NCBI RefSeq assembly: GCF_054482525.1 | Contig: NZ_JBTHVG010000003.1 | Length of the DNA stretch: 64,000 nt | DNA from: a plasmid | Direction: 5' to 3' (one strand) | Shown here: positions 7,071-43,843 of the stretch, piece after piece | Layout of the letters: every line of letters starts with the position of its first letter | Position numbering within the stretch: the stretch's first letter is position 1 | Notes under the pieces: model-generated | What the model was told of the DNA's origin: nothing | The model's input: only the letters and a program-made list of their open reading frames with translations | Database searches by the model: none | Position numbers and translations under genes: made by a program

Positions 7071-8210
<1,140 letters not shown>

Positions 8211-9248: not shown

Positions 9249-9507
9249 TGAAGCCTCGTCTCAGCGATAACGCTTGAAATAGCCCGCTTTGGTCATCATG
9301 AAATTAGCCATCTGACTGGCGATTTGATTGTATCTTACTCATAGTGCCCTACCTATAGGTTAAAAAGGGGCATTTTCGCTTTATAGCGTGTTCAGCAGCA
9401 TCAATCCTCCCAAGAAAGGCTGGCTTATTAAGCCGGTCCATCATTTTCTGTATATCTCTCATCAATTTTTATATCCGCCCTGGAGTGCACCGTTCAAGCA
9501 CACCGAT

Positions 9508-9536
9508 TAGGCAGATAGTCACTAGTTAACTCTTTA
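9508..9536. promoter_or_regulatory. perfect 10-bp-arm inverted repeat (candidate operator)
   Basis: AGTCACTAGT-N9-ACTAGTGACT in the AT-rich region upstream of the 9879 operon. Confidence 0.35.
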
Positions 9537-9784
9537 CTAGTGACTAAATTCCATTGATATACGTGACAACGTCACGTCATGAAAGCTTATAAATGCCTAT
9601 TTTTCATACAATGGGATTTAATTAGGAGTAAATCCCATAGGCTTACATAAGGATGACAATTAAAAGCGTTAAATATCAACCAGATAGAATGATTACCCCC
9701 AATTAATGGGCTCATCACATTATTTCACTGGCTGGGGTTATTGCTGGCATATCTGAAAGTGCTAATATGTTAGTCATTAGTAAT

Positions 9785-9803
9785 TAGTAAAGCCTTTACT
9801 AAA
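9785..9803. promoter_or_regulatory. perfect palindrome TTAGTAAAG-C-CTTTACTAA (candidate operator)
   Basis: 19-bp palindrome about 75 bp upstream of the 9879 start codon. Confidence 0.35.
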
Positions 9804-9878
9804 CGCGTTTCTACGTAAATTCTATAGGTTTTATAGTGTCCTACCTTTGCTCAAATCAAAATGTTCTGACATACCAAA

Positions 9879-11911: not shown

Positions 11912-11974
11912 TAAATGAAGCCAGGTTGATACACTTCTCTGCATCCCCTGGCACATAAGAACTTCTGCGGACAT

Positions 11975-12178
11975 TCAGCCCGTCCGCAGGAGTTTTCGTC
12001 CTTCAGTCAACAAATGCACTACCTTTTTTGAGTCTCCACTTTCCAGAGCAGAAAACACGTTACCGATTCTACCAACAGCTTGTATCTGAGTGATAACCCC
12101 AGTCTTGTAATCATCTAGGATCCCTGACAGGAAAGCGTTCAGTTTTGTCTGTTCGCTTAGCGAAAGCATGTAGGACAT
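11975..12178 (-). CDS. hypothetical protein
   Basis: 67-aa ORF, last gene of the minus-strand methyltransferase operon. Confidence 0.35.
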   Translation of the reverse strand: MSYMLSLSEQTKLNAFLSGILDDYKTGVITQIQAVGRIGNVFSALESGDSKKVVHLLTEGRKLLRTG

Positions 12179-12190
12179 TTTTTCTCCATT

Positions 12191-13510
12191 TTAAGCAGGT
12201 GTGTCAGTTGAAAGAGGTTTGCGTGATTCTGGAAAATGAGGCAGCACCATAGTTTCAGATGCTGTGGTCGCATCCCAGTGCCACCATCCATAAGGCCCAT
12301 ATTCACGGTTGTAATAATCTTTTTTGAGTTGCTTTCGGGCCAGATAAGCAGGAGTGGCCATACCAAATACTTCCATCGGGAACGGCTTATCGCTTTTTGT
12401 GTCGAGCAGGTAGAAGTCAGGGAACACCTCACTAATACTCGCATCATAACGCATGGGCTTAACGTACTGCCGGTGCTCTGCATCCAGCTTTTCTGCAACA
12501 ACCGCCTCATAGGAGGAGTCCAGAGGTATCCAGTTCTCGCTAACGTGCATCAGCACAATTTGATGAGCTCTTACAGAAGGGCCTCTGCCGGTTACCGCAG
12601 CTGGTGACGTCAACGCAAAGACAACTATTTTCGCCCCGGATTTCCATGCTGCGTACTCCGATGAAAATCGTTTCTTTACGCTATCCCAATGGACTTCTGA
12701 ATTGAAAAAAATCAGCGGTAGCCCCCCAAAATTCCGCAGGGGTAAAAATTTAAGTGGCTTCTCATGCTTTTCAGCATCGTAGCGAGGTAAAACTGACAGG
12801 AGCATGAGACGTTTATCACTCATCGCCTGTGATGAAAGACGCTGAATTTGCGACTGAGCGACAGGTTGTTTCGGGTCAGGTACACCAATGAATAAATGGT
12901 CACCTATGCAGGCTCTGCCGGTACGAATTTGTTTAGCGGTTTCAAGCAGACGATACCGTACCAGTGAATCGTTACGTTTCCCTGCCATTTTCGGGTACCA
13001 GACATTCAGACCAGACTCTGTCCACAAAAGACTAAGCAAGCCCAGGAGGGTCATTGAGGCCTGACCTCCTTCTGGTCGCTGAACATGGGGCAGGGGAGGC
13101 ACTTCTGATTTTTCAGGAGGATCTTTCTCTGTCATACCGATACCGAGCCTTACAGCCATATCACCTTCGGTTGTAATCCGGACCACACCACTCGCATATC
13201 CTTTCAGGCCGGTATGCCGGGCATCAAGGGAGAAGAATACACAGGAAGGATCATGCTCAATGCCCGTGTTAGCGGCTTTGACGAGAATAAAGGCATCACC
13301 GTTCGGTAAAGCACGAACATAAAGTCGCTTTTCTCCTTTTCCACGACATCCGCAGGTGATGACTGATTTTTGACCTGAGGTGTGGTGTGCCTTTTTAAGA
13401 GCCGACTGCCACCCTTTAGCAAACTCATCCTGCGTTTGAAAGTCAGGTGAATACCTTTTGACGTTTGGATCGTCGTCGTAAGCAATCATCACTGCGAATT
13501 TTTGGCTCAT
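12191..13510 (-). CDS. hypothetical protein, 439 aa (methyltransferase-linked)
   Basis: Large ORF co-directional with and downstream of the cytosine methyltransferase; no catalytic motif confidently recognised. Confidence 0.55.
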   Translation of the reverse strand: MSQKFAVMIAYDDDPNVKRYSPDFQTQDEFAKGWQSALKKAHHTSGQKSVITCGCRGKGEKRLYVRALPNGDAFILVKAANTGIEHDPSCVFFSLDARHTGLKGYASGVVRITTEGDMAVRLGIGMTEKDPPEKSEVPPLPHVQRPEGGQASMTLLGLLSLLWTESGLNVWYPKMAGKRNDSLVRYRLLETAKQIRTGRACIGDHLFIGVPDPKQPVAQSQIQRLSSQAMSDKRLMLLSVLPRYDAEKHEKPLKFLPLRNFGGLPLIFFNSEVHWDSVKKRFSSEYAAWKSGAKIVVFALTSPAAVTGRGPSVRAHQIVLMHVSENWIPLDSSYEAVVAEKLDAEHRQYVKPMRYDASISEVFPDFYLLDTKSDKPFPMEVFGMATPAYLARKQLKKDYYNREYGPYGWWHWDATTASETMVLPHFPESRKPLSTDTPA

Positions 13511-13532
13511 AGTAGTCTCCTAAACAGGAAGT

Positions 13533-13700
13533 TTAATATCCCAACCAGAGCAACACTTCCTGAGCGTCATACTGTTCCTTTACGCCCATGTCGCTAAAGA
13601 ATTCTTCGAAATCTGTTTCGGGAACGCAATGCCTGGACAGTTCTTGTAATGCTCGTTCTTTAGATACCGTCTCACCTTCAGCTGATTCGAAATACGTCAT
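13533..13700 (-). CDS. small hypothetical protein (55 aa)
   Basis: ORF below the track's size cut-off, translated by hand as MTYFESAEGETVSKERALQELSRH...; sits between the methyltransferase and the 439-aa gene. Confidence 0.3.
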   Translation of the reverse strand: MTYFESAEGETVSKERALQELSRHCVPETDFEEFFSDMGVKEQYDAQEVLLWLGY

Positions 13701-13760
13701 GGTTGACCTCTGACATTATTACAACAATCTTAAGCATTTAAATTGATGAAGGAGCTCAGG

Positions 13761-15230
13761 TCAGCTGACTTCGTCGTAAAACTGCCGCAAGCGCTGGGAG
13801 GCTGCAAATTCAATTCGTGACTTCAGCAGTTTGGCGACGGCCGCAAAGACATCAACGACCACGGAGTTCCCAAACTGTCTGTAAGCCTGTGTATTGGACA
13901 CAGGGATACGGAAAACACTTTCCCCGGGTTTATCGAAGCCCATTAGCCTGCTGCATTCACGTGGCGTTAGCATGCGTGGCCGACGGTCCATGTTGTATGT
14001 GTTATGGAAATCAGTTTCTCCCAGTTCATGAGACCAGCCCCGATCAATAAGAATTTCAGATCCGTCTTTCATATAGCGGCTTGAGAGGGTTCTGGTGACA
14101 CTATTAACATTGGAAGGATCTACTAGTCCAAAACCAAAACCATTGCCTTTTGCCGCATGTTTCTTTGCATAGTTGTATAAGTACTCCCAGAGTTTAGGGG
14201 AGAGGATGTATTTACTATCTACGCTCGGATCCAGTAAATCTGAGAGAGAAGGGCGCTTGTCCGGATAAAAGTCTTTAATGTCTCTCAGAGTAAAACCGTC
14301 TTTCAGACGTAGGTCGCGGCGAAAACCAATAAGGACGATACGTTCACGGTGCTGGGGTCGGAAATGACGGCCATCGATGACTTTAGGATCATCCGCGCCC
14401 GTGCTTTCGCTGTTTGCGACGTCGTAGCCAAGCTCATCGAGCGTTTTCATGATGATGTTAAAGGTATTACCCTTATCGTGACTCTTCAGATTTTTTACGT
14501 TTTCCAGAACAAAAATTGCAGGTTGTTTTGCCCGGATGATCCTGGCCACATCAAAGAAGAGCGTACCCTGAGTGTCGCACTCGAAACCGTGTTTGCGACC
14601 CATAGAGTTCTTTTTACTGACACCGGCGATGCTGAATGGCTGGCATGGAAATCCCGCAAGAAGAACATCATGATCCGGGATAGAGGCATCGATAAATTTG
14701 TATGCCTCGTCATCAGTAACCTCGGGCCGGTTGCTAAGAGTGATGTCACGGATGTCTGAATTGAAGCGGTGCTCGTTCTCATCGCAATACCAGTTCGCCC
14801 GGTAAGTACGGCTGGAATAAGTATTCCATTCGCTCGTGAAAAGACATTTACCACCGATGGCATCAAATCCGCTTCGCAGTCCACCTATCCCTGCAAACAG
14901 ATCGATAAAGCTAAAGTGCCTGTCCTCATAATCAGCAGGTCGTGAAGGTATTAAAGTCTGTAGATAGCGTCCATCTGCGATACTCAGCTCACAATGCTCA
15001 GGTATGCATGTAACCTGACGTTTAAGGGATGCACGGGACCAATTACTGCCATTTTCATCATTTAATACCTGAGCCAGATATTTCAGGTCATAAATGGTCG
15101 AAGCTGTTAACAAAGTTTTGTGGATCAGAGATGGTGTTTTATCCACATCATTCAGGTCTGTCTCAAGATCATGAGTGTAACGTTTCATCCAAACTCTCTC
15201 AGGAATAATATCTTTGAGATAGATTAACAC
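13761..15230 (-). CDS. DNA cytosine-5 methyltransferase, Dcm/M.EcoRII-like
   Basis: Motif I FAGIGG, motif IV PCQPFS, motif [12 protein letters not shown]; N-terminal extension as in Dcm; true start may be an internal Met. Confidence 0.85.
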
Positions 15231-15399
15231 GCTTAATTTGGATTATTTTTTGGTTCAGGTTCTAAATTTATTGTGATTATTCTGCCTTTAAGTTGCAAAA
15301 AGATTGGTTTTAAGCCCGCCCATGAAATAATGACTTGTTAAAATACTGCCTGTAAATAGGCTTGTGGATACATGTCTGTACTCAACAAATCAAGGTGAA

Positions 15400-15918
15400 A
15401 TGATGTTTTTTTTAACAAAGTTACTTTTGCCCATCATGATTGTTGTATTCCCAGTGGCGTCCTGGGGGAACTCAACAACTTTTGAGGCAAAGGTGGTTAA
15501 GATTGTTGACGGTGACACCATAACTGCGTTGGATGCTCAAAACACAACCATCAAAATACGGATGTATGGTATAGACGCTCCTGAATCTAAACAGGCTTTT
15601 GGCCAAAAAGCAAAACAGGCCTTAACCACAGCTATAGCAACTAAAATCGTTACCGTGATAGACCATGGTACGGATATCTATGGCCGTATGTTAGGTACCA
15701 TCTGGTTAGATGGATATGATATCAATGCCTCTATGGTGGACAGTGGATATGCGTGGGTTTATCGGTTCGAAGATAACGCCATTGTCCCTGGCTATATCAA
15801 ATATGAATCCGCAGCACAAAAGGAGGCAAAAGGGTTATGGGCAGACACCAACCCTGTCCCACCATGGCAGTGGAGACAGGCAAACGAAAAGCCCAGAAAG
15901 GTGAAAGAGAAGAAATAA
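15400..15918 (+). CDS. nuc: secreted thermonuclease (staphylococcal-nuclease fold)
   Basis: Start moved to ATG at 15400 after an AAGGTGA ribosome-binding site; signal peptide then SNase-like core (DGDT, GIDAPE motifs). Confidence 0.75.
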   Translation: MMFFLTKLLLPIMIVVFPVASWGNSTTFEAKVVKIVDGDTITALDAQNTTIKIRMYGIDAPESKQAFGQKAKQALTTAIATKIVTVIDHGTDIYGRMLGTIWLDGYDINASMVDSGYAWVYRFEDNAIVPGYIKYESAAQKEAKGLWADTNPVPPWQWRQANEKPRKVKEKK

Positions 15919-15920
15919 CC

Positions 15921-16817
15921 ATGATGAAAGAGCCTCATCCGTTACTTCAGTTGGTACTAAACGATTCCGGTCGTCTAACCATGCCTGTTTATTATAGAGA
16001 TCAACAGTATTGCCCGACTTGCCTTACAAAGGTGTTGAAGAGTGAGGATGGAAGTTTGGCGCACCTCGGGGAAATAAATCAAAATACATGTAGACCTTCT
16101 ATTTCAGTAGTTGTGACAAAAGCAATTATTGAAATGTTATGTGACGGGGAAAAAATATATGTAAATCCAATACGACACCGAGGCCGGGTGCTGGCACCCT
16201 CAGTAATTTTTTCTCCCGACACTCACACTTTCAAACCGTTTATAAATACAGACTATCAGCCTGTGGGAGCAAACTGGAAAAGTGAAAAGGGATATAAACT
16301 CGGTCTGTTTTATCTCAAAGATCGAGCCAACTCTATCAATAAAGAGGAATTTGATTTCATTGCCGTTATAGACCCTGAGGCAATGCAGAAAGAATTTATT
16401 TCGGCCTGGTCTGAGGTTGATGAAAAAAATCCATTGGAAACGCTGAAGCAGATCTTACGATCTAAAAACAACTCTTCTTTATGGGTAAAATGGCCTGGCA
16501 AAATTGAGCATGCGCAAAAAGGAAATTACAACGAAAATTACTGGTTCGATTATCAATCTGATAATCAGGAAGTGAACTGTACGGTCTCTGTTGTAGGTAT
16601 CGAAGGTAACAGTTCCGGTGAGACAATTTATAGATTGCAAACTTTGCTAAAGCGTAAGCTCAATGAATATCAACTGGTTCGGTCTTTAGGTACTATTATG
16701 CTTCTTGATAATACCGGGAATATGATTCCATCAAACCATCCTTATTTTGAAGTCATCTCAAAAGCATGTATAAATGGAGTGCGTGACTTTGTTCGTCAAA
16801 ACCCGTGGGTAGTCTGA
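15921..16817 (+). CDS. hypothetical protein, 298 aa, coupled to nuc
   Basis: Start at ATG 15921, 3 nt after the nuc stop; contains a CPTC motif; no family recognised. Confidence 0.5.
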   Translation: MMKEPHPLLQLVLNDSGRLTMPVYYRDQQYCPTCLTKVLKSEDGSLAHLGEINQNTCRPSISVVVTKAIIEMLCDGEKIYVNPIRHRGRVLAPSVIFSPDTHTFKPFINTDYQPVGANWKSEKGYKLGLFYLKDRANSINKEEFDFIAVIDPEAMQKEFISAWSEVDEKNPLETLKQILRSKNNSSLWVKWPGKIEHAQKGNYNENYWFDYQSDNQEVNCTVSVVGIEGNSSGETIYRLQTLLKRKLNEYQLVRSLGTIMLLDNTGNMIPSNHPYFEVISKACINGVRDFVRQNPWVV

Positions 16818-16864
16818 CGGTCAACTATAAAGCATAATATAATTAGTAATAACAAGGAACAGAC

Positions 16865-17272
16865 ATGAATGAAAACTCAGTAATCTTAATAAGTTTATTT
16901 TGGTTTTTTTTGGGATCGAGTGTTGTAGCTGGTTTTATGGATGCATCATTATATTGCTGGATTTTTGCAGCCATAAGCGCATTGTTTCTTCTTTCGGTGA
17001 TACAAACACCAAAGGAGTTAACGGTATCTATTAGTCATATGACAAGCAAAACGCTGATCTCAAAGACAGATGATGGATACACATTTAGCATTTCACCTTA
17101 CGGAGACGGGTACCGCTTATCAGTCTCGCCTGAAAATCGTCACAATGGTACCCAAAGCTTTGACGGCTGGTTCCCACGTTTTTTTTCCGAACCACAGTAT
17201 GCCAAATCATCTTTAACTAAATTTCTCGGTGAGTCCTTAGTATGGGAAGAAGATTCAAGTAATGCTCTATGA
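16865..17272 (+). CDS. small membrane protein
   Basis: 135-aa ORF with two N-terminal hydrophobic helices. Confidence 0.4.
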   Translation: MNENSVILISLFWFFLGSSVVAGFMDASLYCWIFAAISALFLLSVIQTPKELTVSISHMTSKTLISKTDDGYTFSISPYGDGYRLSVSPENRHNGTQSFDGWFPRFFSEPQYAKSSLTKFLGESLVWEEDSSNAL

Positions 17273-20570: not shown

Positions 20571-20608
20571 GGGGAGCCCGCAGAATTCGGAAAAAATCGT
20601 ACGCTAAG
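20571..20608. repeat. 38-bp terminal inverted repeat of a Tn1721/Tn21-subgroup transposon
   Basis: GGGGAGCCCGCAGAATTCGGAAAAAATCGTACGCTAAG, matching the Tn1721 IR as I recall it; the tnpA stop lies within it. Confidence 0.7.
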
Positions 20609-22120
20609 GTTTTCCGGGCATCCGTAAGGGCCGAAACTTCCCGTCTTCCAGTCTGCGGCTCTGCCGCCAGACGTAATCGCCGGTTAGGTTGATGTGCTCC
20701 CAGCCCAGCGGCGACAGGAATTGCAGCAGCTCGCCGTCCACCGGCTTGCCGGCCTCGACCAACCCCTGGGTGGCGCGTTCCAGGTACACCGTGTTCCACA
20801 GCACGATAGCCGCCGTCACCAGGTTGAGGCCGCTGGCCCGGTAGCGCTGCTGCTCGAAGCTCCGATCCCTGATTTCCCCAAGGCGGTTGAAGAACACCGC
20901 CCTGGCCAGCGAGTTGCGCGCCTCACCTTTGTTCAGGCCGGCATGCACGCGGCGGCGCAGTTCAACACTTTGCAGCCAGTCCAGGATGAACAGCGTGCGC
21001 TCGATCCGGCCCAGCTCGCGCAGGGCCACGGCCAGTCCGTTCTGGCGCGGGTAGCTGCCGAGCTTGCGCAGCATCAGCGAGGCGGTGACGGTGCCCTGCT
21101 TGATCGAGCTGGCCAGGCGCAGGATGTCGTCCCAGTGGGCACGCACGTGCTTGATGTTCAGGGTGCCGCCGATCAGCGGGCGCAACGTCGGGTAGGCTTG
21201 CACGCCCTGCGGCACGTACAGCTTGGTTTCGCCGAGGTCGCGGATGCGCGGCGCGAAGCGGAAGCCTAGCAGGTGCATCAGGGCAAAGACGTGATCGGTG
21301 AAGCCGGCCGTGTCGGTGTAGTGCTCCTCGATCCGCAGGTCGGACTCGTGGTACAGCAGGCCGTCGAGCACATAGGTGGAATCGCGGACGCCGACATTCA
21401 CCACGCGGGTGCTGAACGGCGCGTACTGGTCGGAGATATGGGTATAGAACAGCCGTCCCGGCTCGCTACCGTACTTCGGGTTGACGTGCCCGGTGCTCTC
21501 GCCCCGGCCACCCGCGCGGAAGCGCTGGCCATCGGAGGATGAGGTCGTGCCGTCGCCCCAGTGGGCGGCAAAGGCGTGGCGATACTGGTGGTTGACCAGC
21601 TCGGCCAAGGCCGCCGAATAGGTTTCGTCGCGGATGTGCCAGGCTTGCAGCCAGGACAGCTTGGCGTAGGTCAGGCCGGGGCTCGACTCGGCCATCTTGG
21701 TCAGCCCGAGGTTGATCGCATCACCGAGGATTGCGGACAGCAGCAACGTCCTGTCTTTGGCCTCGGCCCCGTCCTTCAAGTGGGTGAAGTGGCGGCTGAA
21801 GCCCGTCCAGTCGTCCACGTCCATCAGCAGTTCGGTGATCTTGATGCGCGGCAGTAACTGGCTGGTTTGGTCGATCAGCGCCTGCGCCCGATCCGGCACC
21901 GCCGCATCCAGCGGGGTGATTTTCAGCCCTGACTCGGTGAGGATGGCATCGGGCAGCTCGTTGTCCTTGGCCAGGCGGGTGACGGTGGCCAACTGCTCGT
22001 CCAGCAGCTGCAAACGCTCTTCCAGGTACTGGTCGCTGTTCGGGTTGATCGCCAGGGGCAGGGCCTGCTCGCGCTTGAGTGCGGCGAACTTCTCGGCCGG
22101 CAGCAGGTAGTCGTCGAAGT
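20604..22120 (-). pseudogene. tnpA: Tn1721/Tn21-family transposase, 3' fragment truncated by IS26
   Basis: High-GC ORF encoding the C-terminal ~505 aa of a Tn3-family TnpA; reading frame runs into IS26 at 22121. Confidence 0.85.
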
Positions 22121-22940
22121 GGCACTGTTGCAAATAGTCGGTGGTGATAAACTTATCATCCCCTTTTGCTGATGGAGCTGCACATGAACCCATTCAAAGG
22201 CCGGCATTTTCAGCGTGACATCATTCTGTGGGCCGTACGCTGGTACTGCAAATACGGCATCAGTTACCGTGAGCTGCAGGAGATGCTGGCTGAACGCGGA
22301 GTGAATGTCGATCACTCCACGATTTACCGCTGGGTTCAGCGTTATGCGCCTGAAATGGAAAAACGGCTGCGCTGGTACTGGCGTAACCCTTCCGATCTTT
22401 GCCCGTGGCACATGGATGAAACCTACGTGAAGGTCAATGGCCGCTGGGCGTATCTGTACCGGGCCGTCGACAGCCGGGGCCGCACTGTCGATTTTTATCT
22501 CTCCTCCCGTCGTAACAGCAAAGCTGCATACCGGTTTCTGGGTAAAATCCTCAACAACGTGAAGAAGTGGCAGATCCCGCGATTCATCAACACGGATAAA
22601 GCGCCCGCCTATGGTCGCGCGCTTGCTCTGCTCAAACGCGAAGGCCGGTGCCCGTCTGACGTTGAACACCGACAGATTAAGTACCGGAACAACGTGATTG
22701 AATGCGATCATGGCAAACTGAAACGGATAATCGGCGCCACGCTGGGATTTAAATCCATGAAGACGGCTTACGCCACCATCAAAGGTATTGAGGTGATGCG
22801 TGCACTACGCAAAGGCCAGGCCTCAGCATTTTATTATGGTGATCCCCTGGGCGAAATGCGCCTGGTAAGCAGAGTTTTTGAAATGTAAGGCCTTTGAATA
22901 AGACAAAAGGCTGCCTCATCGCTAACTTTGCAACAGTGCC
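22121..22940 (+). mobile_element. tnp26: IS26 copy 1 (canonical Tnp26)
   Basis: 820 bp bounded by GGCACTGTTGCAAA terminal repeats; Tnp26 coding 22184-22888; residue 184 is Gly. Confidence 0.95.
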
Positions 22941-23529
22941 CGCTGTACCAAATGCGGGACAACGTAAGCACTACATTTCGCTCATCGCCGGCCCAGTCGG
23001 GCTGCGAGTTCCATAGCTTCAAGGTTTCCCTCAGCGCCTCGAATAGATCCTGTTCAGGAACCGGGTCAAAGAATTCCTCCGCTGCCGGACCTACCAAGGC
23101 AACGCTATGTTCTCTTGCTTTTGTAAGCAGGATAGCTAGATCAATGTCGATCATGGCTGGCTCGAAGATACCCGCAAGAATGTCATTGCGCTGCCATTCT
23201 CCAAATTGCAGCTCGCGCTTAGCCGGATAACGCCACGGGATGATGTCGTCATGCACGACAAGGGTGACTTCTATAGCGCGGAGCGTCTCGCTCTCGCCAG
23301 GGAAAGCCGAAGCCTCCATAAGATCATTGAGCAATGCTCGCCGCGTCGTTTCATCAAGCTTTACGGCCACAGTAACCAACAAATCAATATCGCTGTATGG
23401 CTTCAGGCCGCCATCCACTGCGGAGCCGTACAAATGCACGGCCAGCAACGTTGATTCCAGATGGCGCTCAATGACGCTTAGCACCTCTGATAGTTGGTTC
23501 GAAATTTCGATGGTCACCGCTTCCCTCAT
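22941..23529 (-). pseudogene. aadA2: aadA2 aminoglycoside adenylyltransferase, 3'-truncated by IS26
   Basis: N-terminal ~196 aa match the AadA2 sequence as recalled (MREAVTIEISNQLSEVLSVIERHLEST...); sequence diverges after RIWYS at the IS26 junction. Confidence 0.85.
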
Positions 23530-23534
23530 GATGT

Positions 23535-23825
23535 CTAACGGGCGAGGTAAGCCGACCGCAGAATGCGGGTCGGCTTGACCGAAATGTTAGAACCAGAAGC
23601 CAAAACGGATAACTTGAATTTGGCGACGGGCGCTAACCGTGAAAAAACGCTGCGCCACCGAGGCGGCACAGCACTGCAAAAACGATAGCTGCTTGCGCTT
23701 GCTACGCAAGGGCTAGAGGCCAAAAAGACTGAAAACCTGCGCAGCCCATGCAGGCGAAGCCCGGAAAAAAGGCAAAACAGGCACTGAATAACGCCTGAAA
23801 AGCTAAATGCCGTTTGAATAAACAT
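23535..23825 (-). CDS. gcuF: gene cassette of unknown function (gcuF/orfF)
   Basis: 96-aa ORF lying between dfrA12 and aadA2 in the classic dfrA12-orfF-aadA2 array; assigned by position. Confidence 0.5.
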   Translation of the reverse strand: MFIQTAFSFSGVIQCLFCLFSGLRLHGLRRFSVFLASSPCVASASSYRFCSAVPPRWRSVFSRLAPVAKFKLSVLASGSNISVKPTRILRSAYLAR

Positions 23826-23936
23826 GAGCTAAATAAAGCTGGGTTTCAGTGGTGCTAACGTTGGACGTAACGAGAGCCGGAGCGCAGCGGAGGGAACCAA
23901 AATGCGCAGCATTTTGGCGTCCCGTTGACGGAATGG

Positions 23937-24434
23937 TTAGCCGTTTCGACGCGCATAAACGGAGTGGGTGTACGGAATTACAGCTTGAATGGTTTCGGTT
24001 GAGACAAGCTCGAATTCTGTTTCGTTGAGCATTGGGAAGAAGGCGTCACCCTCGAAGGTTTGATGTACCTCAGATAGAAACACGCCGTGGGCGTGAGGTA
24101 GTGCCAGAGTGTATATCTCAGCTCCGCCCGCGACGTAGAGTTCATTGCCGAGTTCGGATGCCAAAGCGATAGCGTGCGACAGCGTTGAAACAACTACGCA
24201 GCCAGTGGCGCGGTAGTTAGCTTGGCGTGAGATTACCAATGTGTGACGGTTCGGTAGAGGCTTGCCGATAGACTCAAAGGTCTTTCGCCCCATGACAACG
24301 ACTTTTCCCTCAGTGAGTCTGCGAAAAATCTTCTGCTCACCCGGAATTTTCCAGGGGATATTAGGACCATTGCCAATAACCCGATTGGCTCCCATCGCAG
24401 CAACGAGATAAATGCGTACTGATTCCGAGTTCAT
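23937..24434 (-). CDS. dfrA12: trimethoprim-resistant dihydrofolate reductase DfrA12
   Basis: 165-aa ORF matching the DfrA12 sequence as recalled; first cassette next to attI1. Confidence 0.9.
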   Translation of the reverse strand: MNSESVRIYLVAAMGANRVIGNGPNIPWKIPGEQKIFRRLTEGKVVVMGRKTFESIGKPLPNRHTLVISRQANYRATGCVVVSTLSHAIALASELGNELYVAGGAEIYTLALPHAHGVFLSEVHQTFEGDAFFPMLNETEFELVSTETIQAVIPYTHSVYARRNG

Positions 24435-24578
24435 ATGGCTAACTTTGTTTTAGGGCGACTGCCCTGCTGCGTAACATCGTTGCTGCTCCATAACATCAAA
24501 CATCGACCCACGGCGTAACGCGCTTGCTGCTTGGATGCCCGAGGCATAGACTGTACAAAAAAACAGTCATAACAAGCC
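24435..24578. promoter_or_regulatory. attI1 and cassette promoter region of a class 1 integron
   Basis: Position between the intI1 start and the first cassette; inferred, not motif-checked. Confidence 0.45.
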
Positions 24579-24775
24579 ATGAAAACCGCCACTGCGCCGT
24601 TACCACCGCTGCGTTCGGTCAAGGTTCTGGACCAGTTGCGTGAGCGCATACGCTACTTGCATTACAGTTTACGAACCGAACAGGCTTATGTCAACTGGGT
24701 TCGTGCCTTCATCCGTTTCCACGGTGTGCGTCACCCGGCAACCTTGGGCAGCAGCGAAGTCGAGGCATTTCTGTC
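24579..24775 (+). pseudogene. intI1: class 1 integrase IntI1, N-terminal ~65 codons, truncated by IS26
   Basis: [66 protein letters not shown] then IS26 at 24776. Confidence 0.85.
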
Positions 24776-27455: not shown

Positions 27456-27664
27456 ATAAGAATATCATCAATAAAATTGAGTGTTGCTCTGTGGATAACT
27501 TGCAGAGTTTATTAAGTATCATTGCAGCAAAGATGAAATCAATGATTTATCAAAAATGATTGAAAGGTGGTTGTAAATAATGTTACAATGTGTGAGAAGC
27601 AGTCTAAATTCTTCGTGAAATAGTGATTTTTGAAGCTAATAAAAAACACACGTGGAATTTAGGG
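27456..27664 (+). mobile_element. ISEcp1 3'-end remnant with right IR, truncated by IS26
   Basis: Ends in ACGTGGAATTTAGGG followed by a ~41-bp spacer before blaCTX-M, the usual ISEcp1 promoter-providing arrangement. Confidence 0.8.
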
Positions 27665-27687
27665 AATACTGATGTAACACGGATTGA

Positions 27688-28581
<894 letters not shown>

Positions 28582-28583
28582 CT

Positions 28584-28932
28584 GGTTTTGTTGAATAAAT
28601 CGAACTTTTGCTGAGTTGAAGGATCAGATCACGTATCTTCCCGACAACGCAGACCGTTCCGTGGCAAAGCAAAAGTTCAAAATCACCAACTGGCCCACCT
28701 ACAATAAAGCCCTCATCAACCGTGGCTCCATAACTTTCTGGCTGGATGATGAAGCTATTCAGGCCTGGTATGAGTCAGCAACACCTTCTTCACGAGGCAG
28801 ACCTCAGCGCTATTCTGACCTTGCCATCACGACTGTGCTGGTCATTAAACGCGTATTCAGGCTGACCCTGCGCGCTGCGCAGGGCTTTATTGATTCCATT
28901 TTTTCTCTGATGAACGTTCCGCTACGCTGCCC
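28584..28932 (+). mobile_element. IS903-like fragment (left IR plus transposase N-terminus)
   Basis: Begins GGTTTTGTTGAATAAATCG; encodes MKDQITYLPDNADRSVAKQKF..., the IS903 transposase N-terminus; breaks off near 28932. Confidence 0.8.
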
Positions 28933-29192
28933 GGTGTAATGTCGGTGCTGATTTGGTCTTCAATAAGGCGATTTTTAGCCCGCTTTTTCCGGGGGGATGA
29001 AATGTTATTGGATTGCTAAATGATTTCAAAAAAGGGGTAACATAGAGCGGGGATTAGTGTGGCGAGGCGCAGGTTTCCGATGGCAGGCTAAACGCAAAAA
29101 ATGCGCTTTTTAGCCGGTGATGAGGTGAGGCCGGGAGGGGATGCGTCGCCGATCACAGTTTACAACAGGGTTTGATAACGGGAGGAAAAGTC

Positions 29193-29609
29193 ATGCTGCA
29201 GGGATTGAATCATCTGACGCTGGCGGTCAGCGATCTGGCGTCAAGCCTGGCATTTTATCAGCAGTTACCTGGAATGCGCCTGCACGCCAGCTGGGATAGC
29301 GGAGCCTATCTCTCCTGTGGGGCGCTGTGGCTGTGCTTGTCGCTGGATGAGCAGCGGCGTAAAACGCCCCCTCAGGAAAGCGACTATACCCACTACGCCT
29401 TCAGCGTGGCGGAAGAAGAGTTTGCCGGGGTGGTGGCTCTGCTGGCGCAGGCGGGGGCTGAGGTATGGAAAGATAACCACAGTGAAGGGGCGTCTTACTA
29501 TTTTCTCGACCCTGACGGCCATAAGCTGGAGCTGCATGTGGGGAATCTGGCGCAGCGGCTGGCCGCCTGTCGCGAACGCCCCTACAAGGGGATGGTCTTT
29601 TTTGATTGA
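29193..29609 (+). CDS. fosA3: fosfomycin-resistance glutathione transferase FosA3
   Basis: Start at internal Met ([15 protein letters not shown]...); 138-aa product matching FosA3 as recalled. Confidence 0.85.
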
Positions 29610-29613
29610 CGGG

Positions 29614-30132
29614 TTAGTTCAGCTTACTGCCGGATTTCAACGTGCAGATCCACAGCGGTGAATTGATAGAGCTGAGCAAGATAGCCTTTTCGTTGAGCTT
29701 CTGAGCGTTGAGAAACAGCCCGTCGTGGCTGTCGGACATCTCGCGCATAAAGTAGTCGAAAATCACGTTCGGCGATTCATCAATCGAGGAGGCGCTCGAT
29801 TCCCACTGATTGATGCGGTAATGACGCTCGGTGGCCGAGATGCGTTTGCTGCTGTAGGTAAACTTCACGTAGCGTTGCAGGTAGAGCCAGCCGGCGGCGG
29901 AGTCGGTGTAACCTTCGACCACCATCGAGCCTTTACCCTGCGCGCCAAAATTGAAGTGAATATTGCCGTTAACGTTCTCTTTGTCCATGTTCTCAAAGCG
30001 CATGATGCCCTTAGTGGAACAGCTCATGACACCCGCGTTGTCGGCAGGCAGCAGCCGCCAGGCGCTAAACGCGGCGGCGGCAATAAATACCAGAACGCAG
30101 AGGGCAAAGAACGGACGCGGCGCGAGTCTCAT
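29614..30132 (-). CDS. hypothetical exported protein linked to fosA3
   Basis: 172-aa ORF with N-terminal signal/TM segment, in the position of orf1 of the fosA3 module. Confidence 0.5.
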   Translation of the reverse strand: MRLAPRPFFALCVLVFIAAAAFSAWRLLPADNAGVMSCSTKGIMRFENMDKENVNGNIHFNFGAQGKGSMVVEGYTDSAAGWLYLQRYVKFTYSSKRISATERHYRINQWESSASSIDESPNVIFDYFMREMSDSHDGLFLNAQKLNEKAILLSSINSPLWICTLKSGSKLN

Positions 30133-30831
30133 TACGGCTTCCAGGAGTAGTAAAAGTAGTTATCGCAATAGCTGAACGGGTTATCTTCATGCATGGCGCA
30201 GTGGGCAAGGAACACGCGCCCCAGCCCGTTGGTTTCGAGCCGATCGCCGTAGAAGAAAAGAAAACGTTCACCGGGTTTACAGGCAATATTCAGCCGCTGG
30301 CGTACCTCATCGAAGTTTTTGCCGTAGGACTCTTCACTGACCGAACGTCGCATTTCATCGCTGGCCAGCAGTTCGCACTGGCTATGGCTGAGGCGGGTCA
30401 GCGCGATAGGCTGGGATTCACTGATGCCGACCAGACTGAAGGCAACCAGAAGCAGGGCAATGGTGAGCAAGCAGGCTCCGGCCATGTACCAGCACATCCC
30501 GCGAGCATGTGCGGAGCGCGGTGCGTCTGGCGTTGTCGTAACGGGCGGCGGTTCGGCAGGCGTCTGTTGTGGTGAAACCGGCGGCGCGTCGTCCAGCGCT
30601 TCGATAATGACCTCGGGATTAAGCTGCAAATAGCCGCGCGAGACGGTGACGATGATGTTATCGACGCCGTAATGGCGAAAGGTCTTCCGCAGCATGCTGA
30701 GATACTGATTCAGATTGCTGTTGGATGAGGTTAATCCATTGTCATCCCAGACTTTTTTCAGAACATCTTCCCGGCTGACAATCTCGGTATGGCGCAGAAA
30801 ATAGTTAAACAGGGCGCTGGCGGTGAGGGAT
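30132..30831 (-). pseudogene. winged-helix regulator gene, 5'-truncated by IS26
   Basis: ORF N-terminus MNKTKGCLIANFATVP is encoded inside IS26 copy 4; the native part has a transmembrane segment and a C-terminal DNA-binding-like region. Confidence 0.5.
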
Positions 30832-31651
30832 GGCACTGTTGCAAAGTTAGCGATGAGGCAGCCTTTTGTCTTATTCAAAGGCCTTACATTTCAAAAACTC
30901 TGCTTACCAGGCGCATTTCGCCCAGGGGATCACCATAATAAAATGCTGAGGCCTGGCCTTTGCGTAGTGCACGCATCACCTCAATACCTTTGATGGTGGC
31001 GTAAGCCGTCTTCATGGATTTAAATCCCAGCGTGGCGCCGATTATCCGTTTCAGTTTGCCATGATCGCATTCAATCACGTTGTTCCGGTACTTAATCTGT
31101 CGGTGTTCAACGTCAGACGGGCACCGGCCTTCGCGTTTGAGCAGAGCAAGCGCGCGACCATAGGCGGGCGCTTTATCCGTGTTGATGAATCGCGGGATCT
31201 GCCACTTCTTCACGTTGTTGAGGATTTTACCCAGAAACCGGTATGCAGCTTTGCTGTTACGACGGGAGGAGAGATAAAAATCGACAGTGCGGCCCCGGCT
31301 GTCGACGGCCCGGTACAGATACGCCCAGCGGCCATTGACCTTCACGTAGGTTTCATCCATGTGCCACGGGCAAAGATCGGAAGGGTTACGCCAGTACCAG
31401 CGCAGCCGTTTTTCCATTTCAGGCGCATAACGCTGAACCCAGCGGTAAATCGTGGAGTGATCGACATTCACTCCGCGTTCAGCCAGCATCTCCTGCAGCT
31501 CACGGTAACTGATGCCGTATTTGCAGTACCAGCGTACGGCCCACAGAATGATGTCACGCTGAAAATGCCGGCCTTTGAATGGGTTCATGTGCAGCTCCAT
31601 CAGCAAAAGGGGATGATAAGTTTATCACCACCGACTATTTGCAACAGTGCC
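30832..31651 (-). mobile_element. tnp26: IS26 copy 4 (canonical)
   Basis: 820 bp; Tnp26 coding 30884-31588 on minus strand; Gly184. Confidence 0.95.
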
Positions 31652-31801
31652 CGTCATACTTTCGCCTTCATGATCTGCAACGAGTTGATCAATAATAAGC
31701 GAAATTCGATAACGAAATTCGATATAAATCTAGAAAAAAATACCTCTATGTGTACTACGCAGTTTTAGCTGTGGCTTTCACAGGAGCACGCTTACTTACG
31801 G

Positions 31802-31839
31802 CTTAGCGTGCTTTATTTTCCGTTTTCTGAGGCGATCCC
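31802..31839. repeat. Tn21-subgroup-like 38-bp terminal inverted repeat
   Basis: Reverse complement reads GGGATCGCCTCAGAAAACGGAAAATAAAGCACGCTAAG, close to the Tn21 IR as recalled; abuts the orf5 break point. Confidence 0.5.
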
Positions 31840-32016
31840 TAGGAGCTCGGATCTCAGGACGAAGGTCTCCGCGAATGTCCGGTCGATCCGCGCGACGTCC
31901 CAGGCGGGCGTTCCCTTGGCGGACATCCACGCCGCAGCGTCGTGCATCAGCCGCACAACCTCGTCGATATCACCCGAGCAGGCGACCCGAACGTTCGGAG
32001 GCTCCTCGCTGTCCAT
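31840..32016 (-). pseudogene. orf5 (GNAT family) of the class 1 integron 3' conserved segment, truncated
   Basis: MDSEEPPNVRVACSGDIDEVVRLMHDAAAWMSAKGTPAWDVARIDRTFAETFVLRSELL then divergence. Confidence 0.7.
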
Positions 32017-32143
32017 TCGCTCCCCTGGCGCGGTATGAACCGCCGCCTCATAGTGCAGTTTGATCCTGACGAGCCCAGCATGTCTGCGCCCACCTTCGCG
32101 GAACCTGACCAGGGTCCGCTAGCGGGCGGCCGGAAGGTGAATG

Positions 32144-32983
32144 CTAGGCATGATCTAACCCTCGGTCTCTGGCGTCGCGACTGCGAAATTTCGCGAGGGT
32201 TTCCGAGAAGGTGATTGCGCTTCGCAGATCTCCAGGCGCGTGGGTGCGGACGTAGTCAGCGCCATTGCCGATCGCGTGAAGTTCCGCCGCAAGGCTCGCT
32301 GGACCCAGATCCTTTACAGGAAGGCCAACGGTGGCGCCCAAGAAGGATTTCCGCGACACCGAGACCAATAGCGGAAGCCCCAACGCCGACTTCAGCTTTT
32401 GAAGGTTCGACAGCACGTGCAGCGATGTTTCCGGTGCGGGGCTCAAGAAAAATCCCATCCCCGGATCGAGGATGAGCCGGTCGGCAGCGACCCCGCTCCG
32501 TCGCAAGGCGGAAACCCGCGCCTCGAAGAACCGCACAATCTCGTCGAGCGCGTCTTCGGGTCGAAGGTGACCGGTGCGGGTGGCGATGCCATCCCGCTGC
32601 GCTGAGTGCATAACCACCAGCCTGCAGTCCGCCTCAGCAATATCGGGATAGAGCGCAGGGTCAGGAAATCCTTGGATATCGTTCAGGTAGCCCACGCCGC
32701 GCTTGAGCGCATAGCGCTGGGTTTCCGGTTGGAAGCTGTCGATTGAAACACGGTGCATCTGATCGGACAGGGCGTCTAAGAGCGGCGCAATACGTCTGAT
32801 CTCATCGGCCGGCGATACAGGCCTCGCGTCCGGATGGCTGGCGGCCGGTCCGACATCCACGACGTCTGATCCGACTCGCAGCATTTCGATCGCCGCGGTG
32901 ACAGCGCCGGCGGGGTCTAGCCGCCGGCTCTCATCGAAGAAGGAGTCCTCGGTGAGATTCAGAATGCCGAACACCGTCACCAT
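32144..32983 (-). CDS. sul1: sulfonamide-resistant dihydropteroate synthase Sul1
   Basis: 279-aa product from internal Met [26 protein letters not shown]..., matching Sul1 as recalled. Confidence 0.95.
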
Positions 32984-33185
32984 GGCGTCGGCCTCCGCAG
33001 CGACTTCCACGATGGGGATCGGGCGAGCAAAAAGGCAGCAATTATGAGCCCCATACCTACAAAGCCCCACGCATCAAGCTTTTGCCCATGAAGCAACCAG
33101 GCAATGGCTGTAATTATGACGACGCCGAGTCCCGACCAGACTGCATAAGCAACACCGACAGGGATGGATTTCAGAACCAGAGAAC
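32977..33185 (-). pseudogene. qacEdelta1: qacEdelta1 efflux gene, additionally 5'-truncated
   Basis: C-terminal ~68 aa match QacEdelta1 ([22 protein letters not shown]...); stop overlaps the sul1 start as usual; N-terminal part replaced. Confidence 0.75.
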
Positions 33186-33189
33186 ATGT

Positions 33190-33327
33190 CATTGTACTGG
33201 AAGGCGCATTACAACTGCGGCTGGGGGATGAGTGGCACACCGTTTCTGCCGGGGAATCCCTGCGCTTCCATGCGGATATCCCGCACGCTTACGCCAATCC
33301 CGGTAAGGCCATTGTGACAGGGGTCTG
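33190..33327 (+). pseudogene. C-terminal fragment of a cupin-domain protein gene
   Basis: Hand translation ...[43 protein letters not shown], with the stop supplied inside the Tn2/Tn3 IR. Confidence 0.4.
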
Positions 33328-33357
33328 ACGCTCAGTGGAACGAAAACTCACGTTAAG
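33320..33357. repeat. Tn2/Tn3 38-bp terminal inverted repeat
   Basis: GGGGTCTGACGCTCAGTGGAACGAAAACTCACGTTAAG. Confidence 0.85.
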
Positions 33358-34655
33358 CAACGTTTTCTGCCTCTGACGCCTCTTTTAATGGTCTCAGATG
33401 TCCTTTGGTCACCAGTTCTGCCAGCGTGAAGGAATAATGGCCGAGCATATTGATATGTCCGTGGCAAAGCGGGGAGAGGCGTGCGATATCTTCATCATTC
33501 AGTGTTTCACCCTGCGCCCGGAGATGATCCAGGGCTGCCTGCATATAAATAGTGTTCCATAACACGACGGCGTTAGTGACCAGCCCCAGTGTGCCCAGTT
33601 GATCTTCCTGACCGTCGGTATATCGTTTTCTTATCTCACCTTTTTGACCGTGACAGATGGCTCTGGCAACGGCATGGCGACTTTCTCCCCGATTAAGCTG
33701 GGTCAGAATGCGCCGGCGGTAATCTTCATCATCAATATAATTAAGCAGATACAGCGTTTTGTTGATGCGCCCCACTTCAATGATTGCCTGAGTCAGTCCG
33801 GAAGGACGTTCACTTTTCAGCAATGAACGGACCAGCACTGAAACCTGTACTTTGCCCAGCTTCAGGGAGCCAGCGGTCCGGATCATTTCGTCCCACTGAA
33901 GGACTATTTTTCGGGGATCTGATTGCCCTCTGGCAATATCATTCAGCACGCCATAGTCGGCATCATGGTCCATTCGCCAGAAAACCGAAGCACCGGCATC
34001 AGCCAGGCGTGGAGAAAACTGGTATCCCAGCAGCCAGAAAAGGCCAAAGACAAGTTCGCTGGCACCTGCTGTATCGGTCATAATTTCGGTTGGATTCAGC
34101 CCGGTCTCCTGTTCCAGAAGACCTTCCAGCACAAAGATAGAGTCCCTCAGCGTCCCCGGTATAACGATGCCATGAAAGCCGGAATACTGATCGGACACAA
34201 AGTTGTACCAGGTGATCCCTCTGTTATTACCAAAGTATTTGCGGTTCGGTCCGGCATTGATTGTTCTGACTGGCGTAACAAAGCGCATTCCATCTGCAGA
34301 TGCCACTTCTCCTCCACCCCATATCTGTGCCAGTGGCAGCGTTGCCTGAAAATCAACCAGTCTGGCATTAGCGCTGGTGATAGTTTCAGCCCGCAGATAG
34401 TTCGCTTTTGTCCAGTTCAGCCGGTGTCGGGTCAGTGCAGGAACATTTGATCTGATCAGTGGTTCCAGACCGATATTGCAGGCTTCAGCCATCAGCACGG
34501 CGCTGATGCTGACGGGCAGATCATCAACTCTGGCACTGGCTTCACTAGCATGGAAAAACTCATCAGCAAATCCGGTATGGGCGTTAATTTCGAGCAGCAA
34601 CTCCGTTAAATCCACCGGAGGGAGTAGATCACTGATCATTTTGCTCAGTCGTTTC
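33353..34655 (-). pseudogene. tnpA: Tn2/Tn3 transposase, 3' fragment truncated by IS26
   Basis: 435-aa ORF with Tn3-type TnpA C-terminal sequence ending at the IR; cut at 34656 by IS26 copy 5. Confidence 0.85.
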
Positions 34656-35475
34656 GGCACTGTTGCAAATAGTCGGTGGTGATAAACTTATCATCCCCTT
34701 TTGCTGATGGAGCTGCACATGAACCCATTCAAAGGCCGGCATTTTCAGCGTGACATCATTCTGTGGGCCGTACGCTGGTACTGCAAATACGGCATCAGTT
34801 ACCGTGAGCTGCAGGAGATGCTGGCTGAACGCGGAGTGAATGTCGATCACTCCACGATTTACCGCTGGGTTCAGCGTTATGCGCCTGAAATGGAAAAACG
34901 GCTGCGCTGGTACTGGCGTAACCCTTCCGATCTTTGCCCGTGGCACATGGATGAAACCTACGTGAAGGTCAATGGCCGCTGGGCGTATCTGTACCGGGCC
35001 GTCGACAGCCGGGGCCGCACTGTCGATTTTTATCTCTCCTCCCGTCGTAACAGCAAAGCTGCATACCGGTTTCTGGGTAAAATCCTCAACAACGTGAAGA
35101 AGTGGCAGATCCCACGATTCATCAACACGGATAAAGCGCCCGCCTATGGTCGCGCGCTTGCTCTGCTCAAACGCGAAGGCCGGTGCCCGTCTGACGTTGA
35201 ACACCGACAGATTAAGTACCGGAACAACGTGATTGAATGCGATCATGGCAAACTGAAACGGATAATCAACGCCACGCTGGGATTTAAATCCATGAAGACG
35301 GCTTACGCCACCATCAAAGGTATTGAGGTGATGCGTGCACTACGCAAAGGCCAGGCCTCAGCATTTTATTATGGTGATCCCCTGGGCGAAATGCGCCTGG
35401 TAAGCAGAGTTTTTGAAATGTAAGGCCTTTGAATAAGACAAAAGGCTGCCTCATCGCTAACTTTGCAACAGTGCC
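34656..35475 (+). mobile_element. tnp26: IS26 copy 5 (Tnp26 G184N variant)
   Basis: 820 bp; Tnp26 coding 34719-35423; RIINATLGF instead of RIIGATLGF, plus one silent change. Confidence 0.95.
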
Positions 35476-36997: not shown

Positions 36998-37817
36998 GGC
37001 ACTGTTGCAAAGTTAGCGATGAGGCAGCCTTTTGTCTTATTCAAAGGCCTTACATTTCAAAAACTCTGCTTACCAGGCGCATTTCGCCCAGGGGATCACC
37101 ATAATAAAATGCTGAGGCCTGGCCTTTGCGTAGTGCACGCATCACCTCAATACCTTTGATGGTGGCGTAAGCCGTCTTCATGGATTTAAATCCCAGCGTG
37201 GCGTTGATTATCCGTTTCAGTTTGCCATGATCGCATTCAATCACGTTGTTCCGGTACTTAATCTGTCGGTGTTCAACGTCAGACGGGCACCGGCCTTCGC
37301 GTTTGAGCAGAGCAAGCGCGCGACCATAGGCGGGCGCTTTATCCGTGTTGATGAATCGTGGGATCTGCCACTTCTTCACGTTGTTGAGGATTTTACCCAG
37401 AAACCGGTATGCAGCTTTGCTGTTACGACGGGAGGAGAGATAAAAATCGACAGTGCGGCCCCGGCTGTCGACGGCCCGGTACAGATACGCCCAGCGGCCA
37501 TTGACCTTCACGTAGGTTTCATCCATGTGCCACGGGCAAAGATCGGAAGGGTTACGCCAGTACCAGCGCAGCCGTTTTTCCATTTCAGGCGCATAACGCT
37601 GAACCCAGCGGTAAATCGTGGAGTGATCGACATTCACTCCGCGTTCAGCCAGCATCTCCTGCAGCTCACGGTAACTGATGCCGTATTTGCAGTACCAGCG
37701 TACGGCCCACAGAATGATGTCACGCTGAAAATGCCGGCCTTTGAATGGGTTCATGTGCAGCTCCATCAGCAAAAGGGGATGATAAGTTTATCACCACCGA
37801 CTATTTGCAACAGTGCC
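36998..37817 (-). mobile_element. tnp26: IS26 copy 6 (Tnp26 G184N variant)
   Basis: 820 bp; Tnp26 coding 37050-37754 on minus strand; Asn184. Confidence 0.95.
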
Positions 37818-43023: not shown

Positions 43024-43843
43024 GGCACTGTTGCAAAGTTAGCGATGAGGCAGCCTTTTGTCTTATTCAAAGGCCTTACATTTCAAAAACTCTGCTTACC
43101 AGGCGCATTTCGCCCAGGGGATCACCATAATAAAATGCTGAGGCCTGGCCTTTGCGTAGTGCACGCATCACCTCAATACCTTTGATGGTGGCGTAAGCCG
43201 TCTTCATGGATTTAAATCCCAGCGTGGCGTTGATTATCCGTTTCAGTTTGCCATGATCGCATTCAATCACGTTGTTCCGGTACTTAATCTGTCGGTGTTC
43301 AACGTCAGACGGGCACCGGCCTTCGCGTTTGAGCAGAGCAAGCGCGCGACCATAGGCGGGCGCTTTATCCGTGTTGATGAATCGTGGGATCTGCCACTTC
43401 TTCACGTTGTTGAGGATTTTACCCAGAAACCGGTATGCAGCTTTGCTGTTACGACGGGAGGAGAGATAAAAATCGACAGTGCGGCCCCGGCTGTCGACGG
43501 CCCGGTACAGATACGCCCAGCGGCCATTGACCTTCACGTAGGTTTCATCCATGTGCCACGGGCAAAGATCGGAAGGGTTACGCCAGTACCAGCGCAGCCG
43601 TTTTTCCATTTCAGGCGCATAACGCTGAACCCAGCGGTAAATCGTGGAGTGATCGACATTCACTCCGCGTTCAGCCAGCATCTCCTGCAGCTCACGGTAA
43701 CTGATGCCGTATTTGCAGTACCAGCGTACGGCCCACAGAATGATGTCACGCTGAAAATGCCGGCCTTTGAATGGGTTCATGTGCAGCTCCATCAGCAAAA
43801 GGGGATGATAAGTTTATCACCACCGACTATTTGCAACAGTGCC
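43024..43843 (-). mobile_element. tnp26: IS26 copy 7 (Tnp26 G184N variant)
   Basis: 820 bp; Tnp26 coding 43076-43780 on minus strand; Asn184; direct orientation with copy 6 around oqxAB. Confidence 0.95.

Follow-up and report, generated by a model that had tools for sequence, protein, structure and literature searches.

Organization of the Locus

The segment considered here (positions 31,652 to 32,016) is part of a 64,000-nucleotide stretch of plasmid DNA (contig NZ_JBTHVG010000003.1 of the RefSeq assembly GCF_054482525.1), to which we refer as the window. It is bordered on one side by the fourth of the seven IS26 copies present in the window and leads, on the other side, into a fragment of a class 1 integron 3'-CS. 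Between these two boundaries lie a short remnant of the chromate-resistance gene chrA, the region upstream of this gene, a 38-bp terminal inverted repeat (IR), and the beginning of orf5 (Table 1).

Table 1. Features at and around the orf5/IR/chrA segment (window coordinates).
Feature	Position	Strand	Remarks
IS26, copy 4 of 7 in the window	30832-31651	minus	820 bp, terminal GGCACTGTTGCAAA repeats; identical to copies 1-3
chrA remnant, codons 1-2 (ATG ACG; the window reads cgtcat)	31652-31657	minus	chrA CDS of pEcIMT16316 extends 6 nt into the match
chrA upstream (leader/promoter) region, 144 bp	31658-31801	minus	100% identical to pCNB 17034-17177
38-bp terminal IR of the chrA transposon (published as IRLchrA)	31802-31839	minus	reads GGGATCGCCTCAGAAAACGGAAAATAAAGCACGCTAAG
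TAGGA, 5-bp target in orf5	31840-31844		occurs as a duplication that flanks the intact element of pT413A
Truncated orf5, codons 1-59 of 166	31840-32016	minus	100% identity to R100 11888-12064
sul1, intact	32144-32983	minus	100% identical to R100; in the same 3'-CS fragment
qacEdelta1, 3' 208 nt	32977-33184	minus	R100 identity stops at 33184 = R100 13232 (R100 qacEdelta1 13025-13372)

On the integron side, positions 31839-33184 of the window match positions 11887-13232 of R100 (In2/Tn21 3'-CS) without a single difference (1346/1346). The gene order qacEdelta1-sul1-orf5 is that of the reference, and the fragment is cut at both of its ends, within orf5 and within qacEdelta1. The orf5 gene of the class 1 integron 3'-CS encodes an acetyltransferase of the GNAT family; its nucleotides 1-177 are retained, and the breakpoint, which we mapped on R100, follows codon 59 (...FVLRSELL). 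In the comparison with R100, no identity to orf5 was detected beyond position 31839 toward the IR. The observation made in the initial annotation, according to which the match to orf5 ends after ...SELL and is joined directly to a 38-bp IR, is consequently correct. The junction itself carries an ambiguity of 1 nt, base 31839, at which the terminal C of the IR coincides with the base of orf5 and is shared by both. Past the junction, the orf5 reading frame continues for eight codons into the IR (GIASENGK*), and the resulting 67-aa open reading frame (31813-32016) is found as hypothetical protein WP_000376616.1 in the RefSeq annotation of other plasmids. An NCBIfam scan of this hybrid frame gave no match; for annotators, it should be kept in mind that the 67-aa "hypothetical protein" is an artefact of the fusion of orf5 with the IR.

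The interval between the IR and IS26 copy 4 (31652-31801) had been described as about 150 bp of unidentified sequence. The length estimate was accurate, as the interval comprises exactly 150 bp, but the sequence can now be assigned: it consists of the first 6 nt of chrA and 144 bp of the chrA upstream region. The latter contains a tandem 12-nt repeat (CGAAATTCGATA; 31700-31711 and 31713-31724, with a spacing of 13 nt), a candidate operator that could serve, for instance, the PadR-family regulator whose gene is adjacent in the intact element. Neither sigma-70 promoters nor terminators were found in a scan of positions 31560-32160, and the chrA upstream region contains no match to the sigma-70 consensus. 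When the whole window was scanned against Rfam, no hit fell within the orf5/IR/chrA segment. Other pieces of chrA, padR, IS6100 or mph(A), sought as a sign of inversion as opposed to loss, were found nowhere in the window.

The Inverted Repeat Is of the Tn21 Subgroup

A search of the window with the Tn21 IR pattern, in which up to three mismatches were allowed, returned the 38-bp IR as its sole match, with two mismatches; none of 100 shuffled sequences matched the pattern. When aligned with individual transposon ends, the IR proved identical at 36 of 38 positions to IRtnp and at 35 of 38 positions to IRmer of Tn21 (both from R100). It shares 27/38 positions with the Tn1721-type IR located elsewhere in the window (20571-20608), presumably the same number with the IR of Tn501, and 19/38 with a Tn3-type IR of the window (33320-33357). 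The repeat is uninterrupted and conforms to the consensus of the Tn21 subgroup (GGGG...ACGCTAAG); it ends in ...ACGCTAAG and carries an A instead of a G at position 4. These alignments uphold the reading of the IR as a Tn21-like repeat with two mismatches, and a poor fit to every Tn3-family IR, which would have spoken against that reading, is not what we observed. A second, inverted copy of the IR was not found in the window even when up to 10 mismatches were permitted, and the element to which the single copy once belonged is therefore present here only as a remnant.

A likeness to Tn3-family IRs that came about by mere chance can be dismissed. The outcome of the shuffling experiment refutes this possibility, as does the identity of the IR to the end of a functional transposon that is surrounded by target duplications at two independent sites (see below).

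Tn501 and Tn1721 have also to be considered as sources of the repeat, as it is labeled "IR of Tn501" in one publication (PMC6331395). However, the agreement with the Tn1721-type IR of the window, which we used as a verified proxy, is far lower than that with Tn21 IRtnp (27/38 versus 36/38), and the TnpA protein of the parent element described below is 93.5% identical to that of Tn21. An assignment to the Tn501/Tn1721 type is thus very improbable, and the published label is accordingly imprecise.

A Complete Chromate Transposon as the Source

Positions 31652-31839 match, at 188 of 188 positions, the chrA end of a transposon on plasmid pCNB from Comamonas testosteroni CNB-1 (NC_010935; 17028-17215). 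The outermost base of the IR is also the last identical one, and the IR of the window agrees with the chrA-end IRs of both pCNB and pT413A at all 38 positions. On pCNB, chrA occupies positions 15828-17033, and the alignment with the window begins at 17028. The sequence inside the IR of the window was also tested for an origin from a different element than the transposon of the pCNB type, and no such origin was found.

The pCNB element is a complete, 5,416-bp transposon of the Tn21 subgroup (11800-17215) with the layout IR-tnpA-tnpR-res-padR/orf98-chrA-IR. Its two 38-bp IRs, of which the one at the tnpA end reads GGGGTCGTCTCAGAAAACGGAGAATAAAGCACGTTAAG, agree with each other at 34/38 positions, and the element is flanked on both sides by the 5-bp direct repeat GATCT. 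Its 988-aa TnpA protein (93.5% identity, as stated above) and its TnpR protein (82%) are related to those of Tn21, and the res-tnpR-tnpA region possesses 85% DNA identity to its Tn21 counterpart. The chromate transposon and Tn21 (R100) consequently resemble each other in their IRs, their TnpA and TnpR proteins, the layout of their res-tnpR-tnpA regions, and the generation of 5-bp target duplications. They nevertheless are distinct elements: the chromate transposon carries chrA-padR as passengers and has an outer IR starting with GGGA, while mer and In2 are the passengers of Tn21. A passage in PMC6737455 that cites Partridge (2011) likewise derives the chrA region (IRLchrA-chrA-orf98) from a Tn21-like transposon on the Comamonas plasmid pCNB1.

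Compared with the pCNB transposon, whose chrA end including the IR it reproduces without change, the window retains 188 of 5,416 bp. The res site, padR, a functional chrA gene and the second IR are missing, and neither tnpA nor tnpR of the parent element was found in the remnant.

An Intact Insertion in the orf5 Gene of pT413A

If this transposon had entered orf5 at the breakpoint seen in the window, a second junction must once have existed that joined the tnpA-end IR, via TAGGA, to the distal part of orf5. We assembled this predicted junction as a 210-nt chimera from the R100 and pCNB sequences and searched for it in 72,556 plasmids. It was recovered in full (210/210) in one record only, that of pT413A (OL332704). 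In this IncC plasmid, captured from dairy manure (OL332704.1), a transposon identical to that of pCNB in 5416/5416 positions (record positions 9101-14526) resides inside the orf5 gene of a Tn21-like structure. Its insertion site is precisely the breakpoint of the window, and TAGGA is present on both sides of it (GCGACTAGGA-IR...IR-TAGGAGCTCG); the uninterrupted orf5 of R100 possesses TAGGA only once.

A 5-bp target duplication is out of sight in the window, where one end of the element has been lost, but it is present in pT413A (TAGGA) and in pCNB (GATCT), so that neither of the two complete copies of the chromate transposon lacks one. The TAGGA-flanked, complete transposon in the orf5 gene of pT413A therefore constitutes direct evidence for Tn3-family transposition at the breakpoint of the window. 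Together with the 188/188 match to the pCNB transposon, it bears out the suggestion of the initial annotation that a Tn21-family element had inserted into orf5.

The chromate element goes unmentioned in the preprint of the depositors of pT413A. We tentatively regard this plasmid as a possible preserved ancestral state of the chrA region which, if it has been reported nowhere else, might provide direct proof that a single transposition event brought this clinically widespread region into the 3'-CS. As such, the intact, progenitor-like insertion is an only mildly new by-product of our analysis.

In view of these findings, we also considered whether the IR might be IRtnp or IRmer of Tn21, or an end of Tn1696, that was moved next to orf5 through a deletion within a Tn21::In2-like structure without any separate insertion. 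Its similarity to both ends of Tn21 would fit such a scenario, as would the fact that class 1 integrons are commonly located within Tn21-type transposons, as they are in R100. However, the sequence inside the IR consists of the chrA upstream region and the start of chrA, and not of tnpA or merR, and the segment matches pCNB over 188/188 positions, whereas only about 40 bp can be aligned to Tn21. The IR furthermore agrees completely with the chrA end of pCNB, and the orf5 gene of pT413A harbors the chrA transposon in full, together with the TAGGA duplication. The alignment with pCNB and the insertion in pT413A refute the origin of the IR from a Tn21 or Tn1696 end, to which we attach a practically negligible probability.

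The ends of Tn3-family elements start near-universally with GGGG. That of the chromate transposon starts, at its chrA end, with GGGA (window 31836-31839; pCNB 17212-17215). Nevertheless, the element is bordered by clean 5-bp duplications at both of its independent insertion sites (GATCT in pCNB, TAGGA in pT413A), which indicates that this variant end is competent for transposition.

Dissemination of the orf5/IR Junction

A 199-bp query from the orf5/IR/chrA segment found matches in 4,554 plasmid records, 1,924 of which reach a query coverage of 80% or more; chrA lies under the match in most of the records listed. The chrA region IRLchrA-chrA-orf98(padR), located on a truncated orf5 of the class 1 integron 3'-CS, has already been described (Partridge, 2011, as cited in passages of PMC6737455 and PMC5034289). 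In the one such record that we examined, pEcIMT16316, the arrangement reads IS26-mph(A)-mrx-mphR-IS6100-padR-chrA-IR-orf5delta-sul1-qacEdelta1-aadA5-dfrA17-intI1.

The published chrA region and the window have the breakpoint after codon 59 of orf5, the 38-bp IR and the 144-bp chrA upstream region in common, with 100% identity in pEcIMT16316. They differ in that chrA of the window is cut after codon 2 by IS26 and that the remainder of chrA, padR/orf98, IRt-IS6100 and mphR-mrx-mph(A) are missing. Where the published unit carries chrA and orf98/padR beside the IR, the window holds only nucleotides 1-6 of chrA and no padR; its segment is a truncated derivative of the chrA region and not the unit itself.

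The junction between res and padR is kept only by pCNB and pT413A, and about 1,690 plasmid records share one common deletion endpoint on the tnpA/tnpR side, corresponding to position 15475 of pCNB. In the one record examined in this respect, pEcIMT16316, this endpoint abuts the outer end of IRt, which is followed by IS6100. At positions 4320-4448 of that record, the match to pCNB breaks off 37 bp past padR, precisely where the outer tip of the integron IRt begins; 128 bp of IRt-end sequence and then IS6100 follow. By analogy, a boundary at the tip of IRt within the res region would be reminiscent of the res-site targeting of Tn402-type elements rather than of a random deletion. The lineage of the window, from which IS26 has removed that side, may have passed through the IRt-IS6100/mph(A) form before IS26 acted.

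The IS26 Boundary

The transposase gene of IS26 copy 4 reads leftwards (mechanical open reading frame from 31606 to 30884; usual 705-nt CDS from 31588 to 30884), and the end of the element at which this gene starts abuts the chrA remnant at chrA nt 6. A simple insertion of the 820-bp IS26 leaves an 8-bp direct duplication of the target on its two flanks. The 8-mers flanking copy 4, TGAGGGAT and CGTCATAC, differ from each other, so that no such duplication is present, and an 8-mer matching either of them was not found beside any other IS26 copy of the window.

The ancestor that a simple insertion would have produced (chrA...CGTCATAC-IS26-CGTCATAC) was sought with a query in which pCNB chrA, ending in CGTCATAC, was joined to the IS26 end. 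No continuous match was obtained among the 72,556 plasmids, as four matches of nominally full coverage consisted of two separate pieces each that lie 300-740 bp apart. Given that both the 8-bp duplication and the ancestral junction are absent, the boundary is to be viewed as the product of an IS26-mediated rearrangement and not as a pristine insertion. Later truncation by IS26 had been proposed for this site, and this proposal stands: IS26 adjoins chrA nt 6, and the remnant ends there without an 8-bp duplication. This rearrangement may have been an insertion followed by recombination between IS26 copies, or an exchange via cointegrates or translocatable units.

The exact IS26/chrA-nt-6 junction occurs in about 150-159 plasmid records, mostly from large conjugative plasmids of Salmonella and E. 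coli, and these belong mostly to IncHI2 where typing information was seen. The IncHI2 oqxAB plasmids pHXY0908 (KM877269) and pSH16G4909 (MH522425) are cases in point: they possess an identical junction, and the downstream order of their genes is that of the window (sul1, cupin fragment, IS26, bleO, IS26, oqxAB). They differ in the module found to the left of the position of copy 4, which contains dfrA12 in pHXY0908 and CTX-M/fosA3, inverted relative to the window, in pSH16G4909. In the window, this blaCTX-M/fosA3/FidL-like/wHTH module extends over positions 27456-30831 between IS26 copies 3 and 4, and its orientation is opposite to that in pSH16G4909 (2395-5567). An inverted module next to an unchanged IS26/chrA junction suggests that the module was flipped or re-inserted through the action of IS26.

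A more direct origin of the boundary would be intramolecular replicative transposition (adjacent deletion) by the IS26 copy on the mph(A) side. The common module does end in an IS26 past mph(A), and a copy without an 8-bp duplication is what one expects after such a deletion. An adjacent deletion preserves the orientation of the IS. Yet, when viewed from the chrA segment, copy 4 and the IS26 beside mph(A) in pEcIMT16316 point in opposite directions, and a simple adjacent deletion from this copy therefore fails to explain the junction. Copy 4, moreover, bounds on its left a CTX-M/fosA3 module that is inverted in pSH16G4909, which points to an exchange of modules between IS26 copies. We accordingly consider an adjacent deletion unlikely.

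A Model for the Origin of the Segment

Collectively, these data identify positions 31652-31839, with near certainty, as an inert scar: it represents the chrA-proximal end of a 5.4-kb chromate-resistance transposon of the Tn21 subgroup in orf5, the rest of which was removed in an IS26-mediated event. Nothing contradicts this core reading.

The history of the segment began with an ordinary replicative transposition event of the Tn3-family type, in which the element entered the orf5 gene of a class 1 integron 3'-CS at codon 59/60 and duplicated TAGGA, as can still be seen in pT413A. In most descendants, the res-tnpR-tnpA side of the element and distal orf5 would subsequently have been lost, and the probable product of this step is the widespread module orf5-delta/IRLchrA-chrA-padR/IRt-IS6100-mphR-mrx-mph(A)-IS26. 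Finally, an IS26-mediated event placed IS26 after nucleotide 6 of chrA, the structure now found in the window, and removed everything beyond; this might have occurred through insertion followed by IS26-IS26 recombination, through cointegrate formation, or through deletion. What is left in the window are two chrA codons, 144 bp of the chrA upstream region, the 38-bp IR on its own, and a stub of orf5 comprising 59 codons. As the window contains neither a functional chrA nor any gene for the transposase of this element, the remnant is not expected to have retained a function, and annotators should note that no chromate resistance is encoded at this site.

The structure as such is already known as a scar that is widely disseminated in resistance plasmids, and its end has been published as IRLchrA. 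The orf5/IRLchrA junction can serve as a lineage marker, as it traces back to one ancestral transposition event that is shared by thousands of resistance plasmids. Within this group, about 150 plasmid records form a sub-lineage recognizable by the IS26/chrA-nt-6 junction, which is thereby a lineage marker for IncHI2-type resistance regions. The value of the scar is limited to lineage marking, and it raises no new biological question. IS4321/IS5075 have been reported to target IRLchrA in other plasmids, and one may speculate that the lone IR of the window is a possible target for these elements as well, or that it could take part in one-ended transposition if a Tn21-type transposase were provided in trans.

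Other Mobile Elements in the Window

Past the end of the 3'-CS at 33184, a 135-bp fragment (33185-33319) is covered by a 54-aa open reading frame, which the annotation of pSH16G4909 lists as a cupin domain protein. It is followed by a 38-bp IR of the Tn3/Tn2 type (33320-33357) and a truncated Tn3-family tnpA gene (33353-34660), which is cut by IS26 at 34656.

The three right-hand copies of IS26 (34656-35475, 36998-37817 and 43024-43843) flank the bleO and oqxAB modules. Each of them deviates by three substitutions from the four left-hand copies (99.63% identity), and two sequence variants of IS26 are hence present in the window.

The interval between IS26 copies 1 and 2 (22941-24775) contains a separate integron fragment, with a truncated aadA open reading frame at 22834-23529 and an Rfam match to attI1/AAC_AAD_leader on the minus strand (24411-24489). 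The 5' part of an integron and the sul1-containing 3'-CS part are thus situated about 8 kb apart, with IS26-bounded modules between them.

Further ends of Tn3-family elements are present in the left-hand part of the window. The Tn1721-type 38-bp IR mentioned above (GGGGAGCCCGCAGAATTCGGAAAAAATCGTACGCTAAG) adjoins a truncated Tn3-family tnpA gene (20571-22120 region) that is cut by IS26 copy 1 at 22121 and possesses 80% DNA identity to tnpA of the pCNB transposon. A third Tn3-family end, with the IR GGGGTCAGTTTGGATATCGAAAATTATTGTACGTTAAG at 1890-1927, adjoins a full-length gene for a 995-aa transposase (1913-4900), and genes for formaldehyde detoxification are found nearby, those for an S-formylglutathione hydrolase (5731-6567) and a class III alcohol dehydrogenase (7071-8180).
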